This document shows, piece by piece, positions 2,931-61,645 of a stretch of 64,000 nt of DNA; within the stretch, counting starts at the first letter, position 1, and each line of letters opens with the position of its first letter. Origin of the DNA: Patescibacteria group bacterium (GTDB lineage: Bacteria > Patescibacteriota > Minisyncoccia > Phycocordibacterales > Phycocordibacteraceae); assembly GCA_024653825.1 (NCBI GenBank), contig JANLHF010000039.1, positions 6,945 through 70,944 of the forward strand. The letters run 5' to 3'. The notes under the pieces are model-generated. The model was not told where the DNA came from. It made no database searches and saw only the letters and a list, made by a program, of their open reading frames with translations. The position numbers and the translations under genes were made by a program.

Positions 2931-4904
2931 TTATGCCGGCACGAAGTCGAGTTCTTTTTCTGGAATACGCGCGGCGGTTAATTTAACCCGGATAGGGTCG
3001 CCGAGTTGGAAGGCTTTATGTGTGCGCTTGCCGACGAGGCGGTAGTGCTTCTCGTCATATTCAAAATAGTCGTCGCCGACGAGCCTGATATTTATCATCC
3101 CATCGGCATGCGTGGTTTGCTCTTCTACATAGAGTCCGCGCTCGGTCACGCCGGAAATGACGGCGTCAAATTCCTCGCCGATGCGTGGCGCGAGGAACTC
3201 CACCTGCTTCATTTTGATAGAGTCGCGCTCGGCGTCCGAAGCGCCGACTTCGCGCTCGGAGGCATGGATAGCGAGCTTGTCGAATGACTGCATCTCATTT
3301 GGCGTGATAGGGTCGCCACCGCTATGCGCCTTAATCAATCTGTGGATAACGAGGTCGGGGTAGCGGCGGATTGGGGAAGTGAAGTGTGTATAAAAGTCGA
3401 AGGCGAGACCGAAGTGGCCGATATTCTTTGTTGTATAGATAGCCTTGCTCATCGAGCGAAGCGTCGCCATCTTCACAAGATACTCCTCCGGCTTCCCTTT
3501 CACCGATTCCATAAGTTTGTTCAATTCGGCACCGGTCACTTGCCCACTGCCGCTCGTCTTCAGATGATAGCCCATAACGCGGAGAAGATTAGCAAGGTTT
3601 TCAATGCGGTCTGTGTCCGGCTCGTCGTGAACGCGATAGAGCGACTGGAAGTGCGAGCCGCCCTTGCTCGAGAGTTTAGAAAGGTGTTTCGCGACTGCTT
3701 CGTTCGCGAGGAGCATAAAGTCTTCGATCATCAGCATCGTATCCTTGCGCTCTTTGAGATGTATGGCGATCGGCTTGCCTTCAGCATCGAGTTCGATCTT
3801 GACCTCTGCTGTGTCGAATTCGACTGCGCCCTTGGCCTGGCGGCGCACGCGTATTTTCTTGGAGAGCGCGAGCAGAGTAGAAAGTTCTTCATACATCGTG
3901 CCGCTTCCCGCATCGAGCACCTCCTGCGCATTTTCATACGTAAAGCGCTTGTCGGAGTGGATAACCGTCTCGCCGAACCATTCGCTGACGATGTTCGCGT
4001 CGCTATCGAGCGTGAAAACTGCCGAAACGGCGAGACGATCTTCGTCCGGCTTAAGAGAACACAAATCATTCGACAAAACTTCGGGGAGCATCGGGATGGT
4101 GCGATCAACGAGGTACACACTTGTTGCGCGCGCCACCGCTTCTTTATCAAGCTCCGTGCCGGGCGAAACAAAGAACGAAACGTCAGCGATGTGTACACCG
4201 ACTTCAATGTTCCCATCGGGCAATTTCTGCACTGAGAGAGCATCGTCAAAGTCTTTTGCATCAAAGGGGTCGATAGTGCAGGTAGGGACTTTTCTAAAAT
4301 CTCTACGCTTCGGACTCCTCGCTTCCTCTGCGAGTATCGCCGCACCGTTTTTTTCGAGCTTTTCGGCATCCGCAACGACACCGGGAGGGAAGTCGCTTGA
4401 GAATCCTTGACCGAGCGCGAGTGCACGCATCTCGGTCTCGTGCATGCCGGCCTTGCCGATGTCTTCTTCAATCGTGCCGAGCGGGTAATCCTTGTCTGCG
4501 GCCCACTCGCCGAGCCGTACGAGGACCTTGTCGCCAAGCTGGGCGTCGCCCCGGTCAAGAATGACAATCGGCACGTACATCTTCTTGTAGTCGGGGGCAA
4601 GGAGGGTGAGACCGTTTTCTTCAACCAATGTTCCCACAAACGTTTCTCGAGCTCTAGAAACGATTTCAACCACCTTGCCCGAGGCGCGTGGCGGCATCCG
4701 GCCCATCGGGTCGCTATACATGCCTGCTGGGGCGACTTTAACAATGTCGCCCGCGAGCGCGTGGTTTGCCCATTCCTTAGGTATGAGCAGGTCTTCTTCC
4801 TGCTTGCCCTTCGTAGCCTTGGCGGAGGAGGGCCCTTCCACAGAGAAAAAGCCGATGCCTTTTCGGGTCATCGTTATAGGACCTTCGTAAATTGCCTGCG
4901 CCAT
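2931..4904 (-). CDS. rnr: Ribonuclease R (RNB family exoribonuclease with a C-terminal S1 domain)
   Basis: The RNB motif (CTIDPFDAKDFDDALS) is present, with a cold-shock-like N-terminus and an S1 domain at the C-terminus. The start is placed at an internal Met (4904, or 4871) because the longer ORF overlaps rpsP on the opposite strand. Confidence 0.85.
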   Translation of the reverse strand: MAQAIYEGPITMTRKGIGFFSVEGPSSAKATKGKQEEDLLIPKEWANHALAGDIVKVAPAGMYSDPMGRMPPRASGKVVEIVSRARETFVGTLVEENGLTLLAPDYKKMYVPIVILDRGDAQLGDKVLVRLGEWAADKDYPLGTIEEDIGKAGMHETEMRALALGQGFSSDFPPGVVADAEKLEKNGAAILAEEARSPKRRDFRKVPTCTIDPFDAKDFDDALSVQKLPDGNIEVGVHIADVSFFVSPGTELDKEAVARATSVYLVDRTIPMLPEVLSNDLCSLKPDEDRLAVSAVFTLDSDANIVSEWFGETVIHSDKRFTYENAQEVLDAGSGTMYEELSTLLALSKKIRVRRQAKGAVEFDTAEVKIELDAEGKPIAIHLKERKDTMLMIEDFMLLANEAVAKHLSKLSSKGGSHFQSLYRVHDEPDTDRIENLANLLRVMGYHLKTSGSGQVTGAELNKLMESVKGKPEEYLVKMATLRSMSKAIYTTKNIGHFGLAFDFYTHFTSPIRRYPDLVIHRLIKAHSGGDPITPNEMQSFDKLAIHASEREVGASDAERDSIKMKQVEFLAPRIGEEFDAVISGVTERGLYVEEQTTHADGMINIRLVGDDYFEYDEKHYRLVGKRTHKAFQLGDPIRVKLTAARIPEKELDFVPA

Positions 4905-6870: not shown

Positions 6871-7254
6871 TTAAGGGAGGGCGTATTGCTCGAGTATTTC
6901 GAGATAGCGAGTGCCGTCCGGGTCATGCGTCCGCTCGTCACGCGCCGATCGACGCACTTCGCTGATAGCGAAGATCTCGTCTGAGAAGACGCCGCCATAG
7001 TCTGTGTCCGTGCGCGGTTTCTCCATGAGCGGCAGATACACCCGGATGCCGTCGACCCACCGAGGTTCGGCGAGCGTGTCGACGAACGTGATGATGCGGC
7101 CGGCCTCGTCGGGATAGCAGACGAGCACCTTCATGCCCGCCTCCGCCTTACGTACAAAGCTGAGAACGTTCCTTCCGTTCTCCTTGGCATTCCGAACGAT
7201 CTTGCTCGGGGCCTCTGGCTTCGGGTGCAGTACTGCTTGGTTCTTGGACGACAT
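6871..7254 (-). CDS. Hypothetical protein (127 aa)
   Basis: ORF with coding-like composition and no recognisable motifs. Confidence 0.35.
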   Translation of the reverse strand: MSSKNQAVLHPKPEAPSKIVRNAKENGRNVLSFVRKAEAGMKVLVCYPDEAGRIITFVDTLAEPRWVDGIRVYLPLMEKPRTDTDYGGVFSDEIFAISEVRRSARDERTHDPDGTRYLEILEQYALP

Positions 7255-7424
7255 ACGTCCTCCTCAATATGGTTTCGCGGAAAGACCCGCCTGCCTTCGT
7301 TATACTCCTAATAATAAAAAAGTCAATAAACGTGTTATTTACATCTTTGACGATGTGTCGTACTCTCTGACCCAGAAAGATCTGTTCGGGGAAGCCCGAT
7401 AATCTGATACGAGAGGGGAAAGAA

Positions 7425-7907
7425 ATGGACACAAAACAGCTCAACGTACCCGAGAATTTCCACGAACTCTTGCAGCGGCCCGAGAAGAAAGACTTCGAAA
7501 TCACTGCCGTGTACTTCTTGGAACTCTCACACGCACACGGCCTCTGGGGATTCTTCCCGGCCGTGTTCGCCGCCGACACGAAGCGTATGGTTCTCACCCC
7601 GGATGTGTTGCTCCTGAAAGCAGTCTGGGAGACGCTTACGCCGCGTCGCTCACATATCGGCCAGGCGTATTTCTGCTTGAATCCTGCGCTGTCGATCGGT
7701 TACGAGGTCCGTGGCGATTCAGGGAGCGACGAGCAGAAACGGTCCAAGCCGATGCAGATCCTCACGCAAGAGGAATTCAATCGGCTCATCGCTGAAGGAG
7801 GACAACCCTTCCAATGGGCGCCCGGACTCGTCGGCGACGATATGAACGCCGATGAATTCCGCCAAACCATCGAGGCGGCCCAACAAACTCTGCGCGAGGC
7901 TTTCTGA
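7425..7907 (+). CDS. Hypothetical protein (160 aa)
   Basis: The ORF is preceded by a purine-rich SD-like sequence (GAGAGGGG). A terminator follows it. Confidence 0.45.
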   Translation: MDTKQLNVPENFHELLQRPEKKDFEITAVYFLELSHAHGLWGFFPAVFAADTKRMVLTPDVLLLKAVWETLTPRRSHIGQAYFCLNPALSIGYEVRGDSGSDEQKRSKPMQILTQEEFNRLIAEGGQPFQWAPGLVGDDMNADEFRQTIEAAQQTLREAF

Positions 7908-43749: not shown

Positions 43750-44190
43750 ATGGCAAAAAAGAAACCAACATATCCCGCCGCCGCGAGGCCGGAGCCCGCT
43801 TTGGCGAGGAAAAGGCCCGAGGGAGTTCGAGTCGGGAGAGCGAGCGCCGGGCTCGGGCTCTTCGCGACACGACCCTACAAGAAAGGCGAACGTGTCATCG
43901 AGTACGTTGGCCGGACGCTCACGAATGCCGAAGAATATTCAAGCCGCAGTAAGTATCTCTTTGAGGTGAATAAGAGGAAGACCATTGACGGCTCGATGCG
44001 CTCTAACATTGCGCGCTATATCAACCATTCCTGTAAGCCCAATTGTGAGCCGGAAATAGAGAGGGGACGTATTTTTATCGATGCGATTAGGAACATCAAA
44101 GAAGGAGAGGAGTTCGTCTACGACTATGGTGAAGAGTATTTTAATGAACATATCAAGCCCTATGGCTGTCGCTGTGCGAAGCATACGTAA
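43750..44190 (+). CDS. SET-domain protein lysine methyltransferase with a post-SET Cys cluster
   Basis: It has the NHSCKPNC and EEFVYDYG motifs and a C-terminal CRCAKH. Confidence 0.8.
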   Translation: MAKKKPTYPAAARPEPALARKRPEGVRVGRASAGLGLFATRPYKKGERVIEYVGRTLTNAEEYSSRSKYLFEVNKRKTIDGSMRSNIARYINHSCKPNCEPEIERGRIFIDAIRNIKEGEEFVYDYGEEYFNEHIKPYGCRCAKHT

Positions 44191-44651: not shown

Positions 44652-45383
44652 TTGTCAACACCCCACCCATACGGCTCCTTTTTATGGTATACACTAGGCG
44701 ATATGAAAGAGGAACCGCGCTCTCTTCGAGACCTATTTGGGTCGGAGTATAGATATTCGCTTCTAGGAGCATTTGCACTGCTTGTGGCGGCATATGTGGC
44801 CGAACACTTTGCAAACATCTACGCCTTTGACTATATGGCGCGCCCGACTTCAAACCATGTCGGAGATCTCTTCCTCGACAATCTGCCGATCGTTGATCTG
44901 AACTTCATCATCATTGAGGGGGCATTTTTTTCTATCGTCCTCGGCACGCTCTACGTGTTGTCAAAACCGCGCTCAGTGCTCTTCACGCTCAAGGCCTTAT
45001 CAATCTTCATTATCATACGAGCCCTTTTTATCTCTCTTACCCACGTCGGTTTTTATCCGATCCATCTTGATCCAGGAGTCGGGTTCTTCGCCGACTTATA
45101 CTCATATCTTAATTTTCAGCTCGGGTTCTTCTTCTCTGGACACACCGGCCTACCATTCCTCATCGCACTCATTTTCTGGGGGAATCGACAGGCGCGTCTC
45201 GTTTTTATCTCGCTGTCCGCGGTGTTCGGCGCTGCTGTTCTTCTCGCGCATATTCATTACTCTATTGATGTGCTCGCGGCACCTTTTATGGCCTATGGAA
45301 TATTCACTATCGCTAAGTATCTCTTCCCACGCGACTACGCGCTCATCGCGACGGCTCCCCCAGTTGTCGAAGATGCGTCTTGA
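44652..45383 (+). CDS. PAP2_C/sphingomyelin-synthase-like integral membrane protein
   Basis: There are multiple transmembrane helices with SGHT ... HYSIDV motifs. Its GC content is lower than in neighbouring genes. Confidence 0.5.
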   Translation: MSTPHPYGSFLWYTLGDMKEEPRSLRDLFGSEYRYSLLGAFALLVAAYVAEHFANIYAFDYMARPTSNHVGDLFLDNLPIVDLNFIIIEGAFFSIVLGTLYVLSKPRSVLFTLKALSIFIIIRALFISLTHVGFYPIHLDPGVGFFADLYSYLNFQLGFFFSGHTGLPFLIALIFWGNRQARLVFISLSAVFGAAVLLAHIHYSIDVLAAPFMAYGIFTIAKYLFPRDYALIATAPPVVEDAS

Positions 45384-45407
45384 CAAATAAGACGCGAGGA
45401 ATATAAT
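45380..45407 (+). promoter_or_regulatory. Consensus sigma-70 promoter (TTGACA-16 bp-TATAAT)
   Basis: It has perfect -35 and -10 hexamers. No protein-coding ORF lies downstream; only a hairpin-rich noncoding region follows. Confidence 0.55.
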
Positions 45408-45413
45408 TAGTCC

Positions 45414-45620
45414 TGTTGTGGGCGCCTCCCTCTCCCCGTTCTGTTTCAGTAAGAGCGCTCTTATTCTGGGGCGCTTTTTTATTTGTATTCATTATAAAGA
45501 TAAAGAGTGAGCCCACTCGGGGAGTGGGCTCAGGGGGTGGTTTTTCGCCGCCGCCAACGCGGACGTGTAGGAATGTACGACTTACTGCACCGACCACAAA
45601 GCTCGTGGTCGTTTTTTGAG
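45414..45620 (+). ncRNA. Candidate small RNA (about 60-200 nt) with three hairpins, the last a strong intrinsic terminator
   Basis: The region lies downstream of the consensus promoter. The hairpins are gagcccact/agtgggctc and cgaccac/gtggtcg, followed by TTTTTT at about 45588..45618. No credible ORF is present. Confidence 0.35.
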
Positions 45621-45775
45621 GGCCCAGTCCATTTCTTCTTCCCTTTTCTTTTCCGAGGATACCGGACCCTTGTCTGGCATTCACAATAACTTATGGTCAT
45701 AGGAGTACCCCTTTCTTTCGAGAGCTAGCTCGCGATATCGTACCACGAGGAAATATAAAAGTAAAGTTTGAAAAA

Positions 45776-46009
45776 TTAGGATTCCTGACTGCGGGGAGGC
45801 ATCCAATCGATAATCTTTTTCCGGTGTTCGTCGAGCGACCAGAGGTCGCCATGCTTGAAGAAGAGGGGGTGTGTCAATTTAAACTCTCGCAAGAGTGCAA
45901 GGGAGGCTTTCGGAAATCCATGAGGCAAATTTTTGTTATACGACTTCAGGAAATCGCCGAGCGATATGCGGAGCTCGCTTATCTTCAGTTCTTCGCCGTA
46001 TTTCTTCAT
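45776..46009 (-). CDS. Hypothetical small protein (about 77 aa)
   Basis: The ORF has an internal Met start (MKKYGEEL...). Confidence 0.3.
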   Translation of the reverse strand: MKKYGEELKISELRISLGDFLKSYNKNLPHGFPKASLALLREFKLTHPLFFKHGDLWSLDEHRKKIIDWMPPRSQES

Positions 46010-46116
46010 TGAGACCACAATACCACGAATTATTGAAAAAATCAACGTATTGCTGTATTGAGATTAAAAAAGAAACGGCACCCTTGGAGGGTGCCGATGC
46101 CGTACTGAACCGAGGC

Positions 46117-46647: not shown

Positions 46648-47061
46648 TCAAGGTAGATCAATTTCCTCGCTGTAGGTCGTATAGTCGACGGTCAGCTCCT
46701 CGCCGACCTCGATGTCCTCGATGGCGATGAAATCCTCACGGATCACTCGCATATTCGGACTCGAAGAATGATTCATATGCCACGATTTGGTTGCTTCCTC
46801 GAGACCGTTGTCAGGTATCCAGTAGTATCCCTTCTGGAACGCGCACATATCGTGCACCAGTTTTTTGACCGCTTCCGGCACCCCCCGCAGATCCTCATCC
46901 GATACTCGGATAGAACGAGCGAACGTGCTATCTCCCCTGAAGGGGCTTGTTCCTTCGGGGATCGGCCGTATAGCGAATACGCCGATGCCGTGGATAGGTG
47001 AGGGAGCGAGCCGGGTGAAGACATCGTCCCGCAACTGCTTCAGCAATTTCGTCTTGTTCAT
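46648..47061 (-). CDS. Second SET-domain protein (no post-SET)
   Basis: It has the MNHSSSPNM and GEELTVDY motifs. An AAAGGAG SD lies 8 nt upstream of the ATG at 47061. Confidence 0.7.
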   Translation of the reverse strand: MNKTKLLKQLRDDVFTRLAPSPIHGIGVFAIRPIPEGTSPFRGDSTFARSIRVSDEDLRGVPEAVKKLVHDMCAFQKGYYWIPDNGLEEATKSWHMNHSSSPNMRVIREDFIAIEDIEVGEELTVDYTTYSEEIDLP

Positions 47062-47164
47062 GTCTGCACTCCTTTCTTGTCCGCCTGTCACCATACCACT
47101 TTTCTATAAAAAAGAAATCGCCCCAAGCGCGTGAGCGCAAGGGGCGATGAGGTAACACGAAAGA

Positions 47165-61378: not shown

Positions 61379-61606
61379 ATGTTTATAAAAGTATTCGTTA
61401 CGCCGAGTGCGAAGCGCGAAAGAATAGACGAAAAGGGCGATGCGTTGCTCGTGGCAGTAAAAGAGCCAGCAATGGGGAATCGCGCGAATACGCGCGTGCG
61501 CGAGATTGTCGCCGCACGGGAAGGTGTGCCGGTGGGGAAGGTGCGCATACTGACAGGACACCGTTCTCGGGTTAAAATGGTAAGTGTTACTAGCCCCGAC
61601 GCTTAG
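61379..61606 (+). CDS. DUF167/YggU-family protein
   Basis: The DUF167 pattern is VKVTPSAKRERI...LLVAVKEPAMGNRAN... Confidence 0.65.
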   Translation: MFIKVFVTPSAKRERIDEKGDALLVAVKEPAMGNRANTRVREIVAAREGVPVGKVRILTGHRSRVKMVSVTSPDA

Positions 61607-61645
61607 TCGGGGCCCCGACTAAGCGTCGGGGCTGATTTTTCCACT
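61596..61645 (+). terminator. 40-bp perfect palindrome (two inverted 20-nt units) followed by a T-tract; strong terminator or cruciform
   Basis: The sequence is gccccgacgcttagtcgggg|ccccgactaagcgtcggggc, then TGATTTTTCC. It overlaps the yggU stop codon. Confidence 0.65.

Follow-up and report, generated by a model that had tools for sequence, protein, structure and literature searches.

What does a perfect consensus promoter transcribe when it is followed by hairpins and not by an open reading frame? The question is raised by a locus in a Patescibacteria MAG, where a sigma-70-type promoter lies at the 3' end of a gene for a PAP2-like membrane protein. The original prediction, which was made from the nucleotide sequence, took the promoter to be dedicated to a candidate small RNA (sRNA) of about 200 nt. 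We have compared the locus with 123 related loci in all. The region 45380-45620 of the window (the whole 64-kb stretch of DNA that was analysed) very probably consists of parts of two convergent transcription units together with the scar of a lost gene, and is not one sRNA gene.

Results

The locus and its relatives

The region is situated between convergent genes: the plus strand carries the PAP2-like gene, and the minus strand a 56-codon ORF and a gene for an 89-aa conserved hypothetical protein (Table 1). An NCBI product of 226 aa (P0004, named 'hypothetical protein NUV60_03505 [Patescibacteria group bacterium]' and derived from a Patescibacteria MAG) is 100% identical to the PAP2-like protein and implies an ATG start at 44703. 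By the relatives of its PAP2 protein, the window belongs to the Parcubacteria (Kaiserbacteria/Paceibacterota-like Patescibacteria). Neither Pfam nor NCBIfam gave a match above threshold for the 89-aa protein, a homologue of which is encoded directly abutting the PAP2 gene in L002, L006 and L008.

Table 1. Features of the region and of its flanks, in window coordinates.
Feature	Position	Strand	Details
PAP2-like membrane protein gene (PF14360 PAP2_C)	44652-45383	+	longest ORF from TTG 44652; stop TGA 45381-45383
Sigma-70-type promoter, TTGACA-N16-TATAAT	45380-45407	+	12/12 consensus; overlaps the PAP2 stop (TGA 45381-45383)
Putative relic 5'UTR	45408-45450	+	expected transcription start ~45414-45415; alignments A3, A5
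Intrinsic terminator T1 (hairpin 1)	45451-45484	+	hairpin 45451-45478; stem 45454-45461/45468-45475, then U-tract
Intrinsic terminator T2 (hairpin 2) of the 56-aa gene	45508-45532	-	11-bp stem, includes the stop TGA
56-aa gene, very basic Cys-rich protein	45530-45700	-	ATG 45700-45698, stop 45532-45530
Hairpin 3 and TTTTTT	45591-45617	+	stem-loop 45591-45611; 7-bp stem inside the 56-aa coding sequence
Shine-Dalgarno site of the 56-aa gene, AAAGGGG	45708-45714	-	7 nt upstream of the ATG
Probable promoter of the 56-aa gene, TTACTT-N16-TACGAT	45737-45764	-	predicted; TG(G) directly before the -10
89-aa conserved hypothetical gene	45776-46045	-	upstream of the 56-aa gene, co-oriented

Downstream of the PAP2 gene the region differs between lineages. 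The closest contig by PAP2 identity (L122, 87%) is rearranged and has another downstream neighbour. Contig L121 shows synteny with the window, with a DNA identity of about 72%, and the two have in common the order SET gene, cold-shock gene, PAP2, small Cys-rich gene, homologue of the 89-aa gene and aminopeptidase. A blastn search with the intergenic region found no significant match in the first 41 related loci, and Rfam 15 at the gathering threshold assigned 45380-45620 to no family, with only chance-level matches (E ≥ 1) in a permissive scan. Conservation in the intergenic region is confined to short blocks, which become visible once syntenic contigs are read.

A conserved promoter that precedes a protein gene in relatives

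The promoter had been described as perfect and as overlapping the stop codon of the upstream membrane-protein gene, and it is both. It is the sole TTGACA-N16-TATAAT site in the 64-kb window, and a 12/12 promoter appeared in none of 100 dinucleotide-preserving shuffles. At least six contigs or lineages of related Parcubacteria have a homologous promoter in this position. The form TTGACA-16-TATA(A/C)(T/G/C) overlaps the 3' end of the PAP2 gene in L123, the PAP2 protein of which is 82% identical to that of the window, and in L056, L054, L075 and L049. The L121 promoter has been moved away from PAP2 by an insertion of three genes, and the L001 version has a 17-nt spacer and a different, apparently unrelated gene behind it. 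The consensus is matched at all 12 positions in the window and in L056, and at 10-11 of the 12 in most homologues.

Across six lineages including the window, the -35 hexamer TTGACA and the TATA of the -10 are invariant and the spacer diverges (alignments A3 and A5). The hexamer falls in three registers with respect to the PAP2 reading frame, T-TGA-CA, TTG-ACA-TAA and GTT-GAC-AAG-TAG, and must therefore have been conserved as a DNA signal and not as codons. Sigma-70-like sites matching at least 10 of the 12 positions also stand upstream of a Shine-Dalgarno site and ATG at several other genes of the window, which indicates that this consensus has meaning in the organism. We regard the promoter as almost certainly genuine, and presumably active.

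Behind the promoter in all of these relatives except L001 there is a leader of 65-75 nt, a Shine-Dalgarno site and a gene for a small acidic protein. The protein is 66-192 aa in length and has SWAG and DADE motifs after a basic N-terminus; its homologues from L121, L075, L049 and L056 are aligned in A4, and the family has no Pfam or NCBIfam match above threshold. The gene is fast-evolving and ends in an intrinsic terminator, which in L121, where the gene encodes 88 aa, stands back-to-back with the terminator of the small Cys-rich gene. The sequence in L121 before the 88-aa gene is TTGACAAAGAAATGGCGAGGAGTATACT, and its counterpart in the window is TTGACAAATAAGACGCGAGGAATATAAT. Judged by these alignments, the window promoter is homologous to the promoter of the small acidic protein gene. 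It had been proposed that the promoter is dedicated to a small RNA; in the relatives what it drives is a gene for a small protein, and this gene appears to have been deleted here. Conservation in relatives had itself been put forward as a check on the sRNA, and what the relatives contain between promoter and terminator is a protein gene and not a conserved non-coding unit.

A putative leader remnant next to a terminator

In the window the -10 hexamer is followed by a terminator after only about 43 nt, with neither the Shine-Dalgarno site nor any of the coding sequence in between. No homologue of the small acidic protein was found anywhere in the 64-kb window, and the plus strand behind the promoter holds no credible ORF. 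The absence of a plausible ORF, as originally stated, is thus true of the plus strand; it does not extend to the minus strand, where the 56-codon gene covers 45530-45620. Three plus-strand ORFs were considered and rejected: those at 45416-45619 (67 aa) and 45418-45510 (30 aa) have no Shine-Dalgarno site and run through terminator T1, and that at 45507-45689 (60 aa) begins after T1 and is the antisense shadow of the minus-strand gene.

The 43-nt remnant of the 5'UTR retains the CTGTTG block and the invariant GTTCTGT block of the 5'UTRs of the relatives, and its assignment as homologous depends on these short blocks. It is without the 5'UTR hairpin of the relatives, for which RNAalifold gave only a weak consensus (-1.4 kcal/mol), and without their Shine-Dalgarno site and coding sequence. 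The remnant contains a CU-rich stretch, CCTCCCTCTCCCC, that had been suggested as a seed able to bind Shine-Dalgarno-like sequences; it is specific to the window and is not conserved in the relatives (A5). A GT(T/C)TCA(G/A)-like motif occurs in both the 5' and the 3' UTRs of the relatives, at the position where the window passes from leader to terminator.

That terminator, T1, has its homologue at the end of the small acidic protein gene of L075, L049 and L121 (alignment A2). Its stem of 8 bp (four G-C, one A-U and three G-U pairs) is followed by a U6 tract, and it has the attributes of an intrinsic terminator: a GC-rich stem-loop with a U-tract, a position at the end of a gene, and conservation with compensatory changes. 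T1 is also the first terminator after PAP2 and serves here as the terminator of the PAP2 mRNA as well. It lies only about 45 nt past the expected transcription start, and a leader of about 43 nt that runs straight into it would allow an RNA of at most about 70 nt (~45414-45484). The original prediction of about 200 nt with three stem-loops is therefore correct in that all three stem-loops exist, and incorrect in that they do not belong to one transcript. The 73-nt RNA from promoter to T1 folds no better than shuffles (z = -1.5).

The small acidic protein gene is present both in the close relative L123 and in distant ones with 66-70% PAP2 identity, which favours loss here over gain elsewhere, a polarity judged from this distribution of the gene; the nearest genomes for dating the deletion stand at 82-87% PAP2 identity. 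The 12/12 match of the promoter is unlike that of a relic that has long been decaying, and suggests either that the deletion is recent or that the promoter is still under selection. The window holds no second copy of the promoter-leader-terminator unit, and since there is only this one copy a repeated or mobile element was ruled out.

A conserved Cys-rich protein gene on the opposite strand

The minus-strand ORF encodes a protein of 56 aa (MTISYCECQ...KNDHELCGRC...RPRWRRRK) in which C6, C8, C35 and C38 are putative metal ligands. A jackhmmer search of the six-frame ORFs of the window and of 120 loci gave about 15 homologues, most of them encoded just downstream of the PAP2 gene and convergent to it. 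A phmmer search of 1.8 billion representatives found P0001, which is the protein encoded on contig L121 (67 aa, 65% identity, E = 2.7e-14), and P0003. The family is very rich in Arg and Lys and has the signature YCEC-x(20-25)-KNDHxLCxRC (alignment A7). Positions C6, E7, C8 and C35 do not vary, and H32, L34 and C38 are conserved to at least 90%, the C38 position being occupied by His in P0001, L096 and L093.

When five members were aligned by codon, differences at third positions were about twice as frequent as those at first or second positions, and pN was 0.22-0.32 against a pS of 0.70-0.92. The low pN relative to pS in the minus frame points to purifying selection, and by this evidence the 56-codon ORF is a real conserved protein gene. 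Its homologues have AAGGAGG at the place of its Shine-Dalgarno site. A probable promoter was located further upstream (Table 1), at positions equivalent to which L028, L096, L066 and L075 have TTGACA/TTGCTT ... TGGTAT(A/T)GT, with a TGn-extended -10. The exact 56-aa sequence is absent from a collection of 15 billion proteins, so that this copy has probably never been called as a gene, a judgement drawn from the protein collection.

The 56-aa protein has no Pfam, NCBIfam or PDB match at threshold, the PDB profile search returning chance matches, and a word-indexed protein search gave no candidates. An AlphaFold2 model built on an alignment of three sequences had a pLDDT of 48.8 and is uninterpretable.

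Two convergent terminators and an incidental hairpin

Hairpin 2 folds at -20.2 kcal/mol (z = -6.9). There is no T-run adjacent to it on the plus strand; on the minus strand its stem is followed by CTCTTTATCTTTAT. A comparable minimum free energy (MFE) hairpin, of -14.6 to -24.7 kcal/mol, lies at the stop codon or a few bases after it in 11 of the 12 homologues folded. The twelfth, L024, has its hairpin about 33 nt past the stop, outside the 48 nt folded, and the MFE in the folded stretch is -5.1 kcal/mol. The hairpins of the homologues have a T-rich tail on the coding strand, and their stems vary by lineage with complementarity kept. The retention of a hairpin with compensated stems after the stop codon identifies hairpin 2 as the intrinsic terminator of the minus-strand gene, T2, and it has the full set of attributes that was described for T1.

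Hairpin 3 does not have the full set. It had been taken for a strong terminator with TTTTTT, but it lies inside the 56-aa coding sequence, and its stem is found in none of nine homologues although the peptide is conserved in all nine. Its arms are the antisense of AAC-GAC-CAC and TGT-GGT-CGG (N-D-H...C-G-R), within the codons for KNDHELCGR, and the TTTTTT is the antisense of AAA-AAC (Lys-Asn). Judged against its homologues, hairpin 3 with its T-run is an incidental product of these codons and not the terminator of a conserved transcript.

Discussion

We propose that in the ancestral state the promoter at the 3' end of PAP2 would have transcribed a 5'UTR, a Shine-Dalgarno site, the small acidic protein gene and its terminator. 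The Shine-Dalgarno site and the entire coding sequence would then have been deleted in this genome, if the direction of change has been judged correctly, and about 43 nt of the 5'UTR would have been fused to the terminator of the small acidic protein gene. The junction may lie at the short GTTTCAG-like repeat of both UTRs, in which case the deletion could have been mediated by microhomology. The remaining product would be an RNA of at most about 70 nt with the same sequence as the 3' end of the mRNA of PAP2, and it is most likely a non-functional relic.

It is in our judgement unlikely that the 70-nt RNA is a functional sRNA, a relic that was retained or exapted with an architecture of the 3'UTR type, in which CCUCC might pair with Shine-Dalgarno-like sequences. 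Such a role would be in keeping with a perfect promoter that is undecayed relative to its homologues, with a strong terminator, and with nothing coding between them, and sRNAs are known to have arisen from pieces of the mRNAs of protein genes while retaining the promoter of the parent gene (PMC8825220). However, the short form is present in no relative, and where the sequence downstream of the promoter can be read it leads to a protein gene; the CU-rich stretch with its CCUCC is peculiar to the window, and neither the fold of the 73-nt RNA nor Rfam gives the unit any distinction. The more specific proposal that the unit is a newly born regulatory RNA, with the deletion having joined a strong promoter and leader to a terminator and so exposed an anti-Shine-Dalgarno-like CCUCC stretch, we regard as quite unlikely. 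If it were true, the origin of an sRNA from a protein gene would have been caught in the act in a CPR (Patescibacteria) bacterium, and to our knowledge no sRNAs have been characterised in that lineage.

Returning to the arrangement of convergent units, the promoter points towards the 56-aa gene, whose 3' end is 150 nt away. Read-through past T1 could thereby lower expression of that gene, by transcriptional interference or through an RNA duplex, and hairpin 3 with its T6 would stop the antisense RNA within the coding sequence. We consider such antisense regulation very unlikely. T1 is a canonical terminator and hairpin 3 is not conserved, and in the relatives the promoter is separated from the small gene by an entire gene together with this terminator, so that there is no conserved antisense arrangement.

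The absence of the coding sequence could also be an artefact of assembly, the true genome still carrying the small acidic protein gene. The source is indeed a MAG, and a short similar motif is common to the 5' and 3' UTRs of the relatives; but this motif is about 7 nt long, far below the k-mer sizes of assemblers, the flanks are collinear with those of the relatives, and the variation downstream of PAP2 between lineages is genuine. An artefact is accordingly highly improbable.

A single sRNA of about 200 nt, from 45414 to about 45617, with three functional stem-loops and the TTTTTT terminator, can be given extremely little weight. The 207-nt stretch does fold better than shuffles (z = -3.5), and hairpin 3 with its T6 fits the pattern of a terminator. 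However, the low folding energy is due to the two convergent terminators, and transcription would meet a strong terminator about 45 nt after its start. Purifying selection acts on the coding sequence that the opposite strand carries at 45530-45620, the stem of hairpin 3 is absent from all nine homologues compared, and the covariation in hairpin 2 is that of a terminator belonging to the minus-strand gene. That the promoter match is a functionless coincidence deserves almost no credence, for although the screening of many windows will yield rare chance matches, this one did not arise in the shuffles and is kept at a homologous position in at least six lineages and in three frames of the overlapping gene.

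The value of the analysis is mainly corrective, in that hairpins behind a textbook promoter, with no ORF on the same strand, are insufficient for calling an sRNA. The comparative data account for each element as an orphaned promoter, two convergent terminators and a hairpin within a coding region. They also document a conserved family of small Cys-rich basic proteins in the Parcubacteria, typically encoded convergent to a PAP2-like gene. The locus itself would be a clear natural case of a promoter, leader and terminator that stayed behind as a unit when a gene was deleted, and such units are the proposed raw material of sRNAs.

Comparison with known systems

The 56-aa protein resembles small zinc-ribbon or Cys4 basic proteins in the spacing CxC...(H)xLCxxC and in its very basic composition, and two pairs of metal-ligand residues (CxC and CxxC) are conserved in the family. 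It is unlike them in that searches for curated family membership or a fold found neither, and in that the last Cys is replaced by His in some members. The Cys spacing and the basic composition suggest that the protein binds metal and nucleic acid.

T1 and T2 correspond to the back-to-back terminators of convergent genes, being GC-rich, with U-tracts on their own strands, and 30 nt apart. Terminator pairs of this type are also found in L075, L049, L056, L066 and L121, and the arrangement is nothing unusual.

Compared with trans-acting sRNAs, only the unit of about 70 nt has the general form, in that the promoter and T1 flank about 43 nt of non-coding sequence; the unit is not conserved in the related genomes and belongs to no Rfam family. 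The 3'UTR-derived sRNAs of the DapZ/MicL type in Salmonella and E. coli have their own promoter in or at the end of the upstream coding sequence and have its terminator in common, and they are characterized by a conserved seed and by dependence on a chaperone. The window is similar in that the -35 overlaps the PAP2 stop codon and the putative RNA would be co-terminal with the PAP2 mRNA at T1. It differs in that the arrangement would have come about by deletion of an intervening gene, and in that the candidate seed is not conserved: the only conserved block is GTTCTGT, which in the relatives is part of an mRNA leader.

The closest likeness in origin is to OxyS, an sRNA derived from a peroxidase mRNA, and to gene fragments that have kept their parental promoter (Krieger et al. 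2022, PMC8825220). Here too a promoter and untranslated parts would have outlasted the coding sequence, as a short terminated unit at the ancestral locus. OxyS is, however, expressed, conserved and regulatory, whereas the transcript of the unit in the window is a predicted one, and its short form is not conserved in relatives. Set against OxyS, the default reading of the unit is a neutral relic of gene loss, in which regulatory elements homologous to those of the intact gene in relatives persist and the coding sequence is gone (A2, A3 and A5).

Small protein genes around the conserved promoter

In related Parcubacteria, the conserved promoter whose window copy overlaps the stop of the PAP2-like membrane protein gene is followed by a gene for a small acidic protein. 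In every case this gene lies behind the promoter next to the PAP2 gene. The proteins, 66 to 192 aa long, evolve fast. Their N-terminus is basic, they carry SWAG and DADE motifs, and the middle of some members is rich in Cys; the family has no match to a known family. Comparison with these relatives suggests that the window has lost the acidic protein gene, although the direction of change is inferred.

The mRNA leader of the acidic protein contains a GTTCTGT block that is invariant in the related loci L123, L056, L054, L075 and L049 and has a copy in the window at 45438-45444. The block lies approximately 15 to 30 nt 5' of the SD and may be a regulatory site. In the relatives, it is preceded on the 5' side by a hairpin whose sequence varies among lineages, and RNAalifold support for this leader hairpin is weak.

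Convergent to the PAP2-like gene, the window encodes a conserved 56-aa basic Cys-rich protein without a Pfam or NCBIfam family. Approximately 15 homologs are found in related Parcubacteria, usually in the same convergent position. Because its exact sequence is absent from a collection of 15 billion proteins, the ORF was probably missed by gene calling.

Small protein and SET-domain protein genes in the window and in related loci
Gene	Locus	Position	Strand	Features
Cys-rich protein	window	45530-45700	-	CxC...HxLCxxC motif; own SD and terminator
Acidic protein	L075	3766-4260		
Acidic protein	L049	975-1550		
Acidic protein	L056	3749-3946		
Acidic protein	L121	4140-4403	-	
Acidic protein	L123	1024-1114		
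SET-domain protein	window	43750-44190	+	Pfam PF00856, E = 1.7e-24
SET-domain protein	window	46648-47094	-	Pfam PF00856, E = 2.8e-9

Gene organization in the window and in relatives

For the PAP2-like gene, the longest ORF begins with TTG at 44652 (243 aa); the NCBI product of 226 aa implies a start at ATG 44703. A minus-strand 10/12 promoter-like site (44658-44630) lies 5' of the cold-shock gene and overlaps the 243-aa form. This CPR bacterium encodes two SET-domain (lysine methyltransferase-like) proteins in a stretch of less than 3.5 kb. Elsewhere in the window, a near-perfect 42-nt palindrome, each arm of which forms a small hairpin by itself, lies at 61591-61634 (+; AGCCCCGACGCTTAGTCGGGGC/CCCGACTAAGCGTCGGGGCT) and is followed by GATTTTT. 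A 10/12 promoter-like site (61550-61578) directly precedes it, and an ATG follows at approximately 61648.

In the related loci L003 (approximately 4756-4860) and L013 (approximately 1501-1640), the PAP2 gene is followed by a promoter-like site and then by a hairpin that, with its U-run, resembles a terminator; next come an SD and a very short ORF of 25 to 57 aa. This arrangement represents either a leader of the attenuator type or the terminator of an upstream gene that lies within the 5'UTR of the next gene.

The PAP2 gene neighborhood is a rearrangement hotspot. Compared with the window, L121, an ENA Hain_H14 contig, carries an insertion of three additional genes that separates PAP2 from the conserved promoter and comprises a membrane protein of 159 aa and a YkuD L,D-transpeptidase with their spacer; the same contig encodes an IS200/IS605-type Y1 transposase (7093-7758) between the cold-shock and SET genes.
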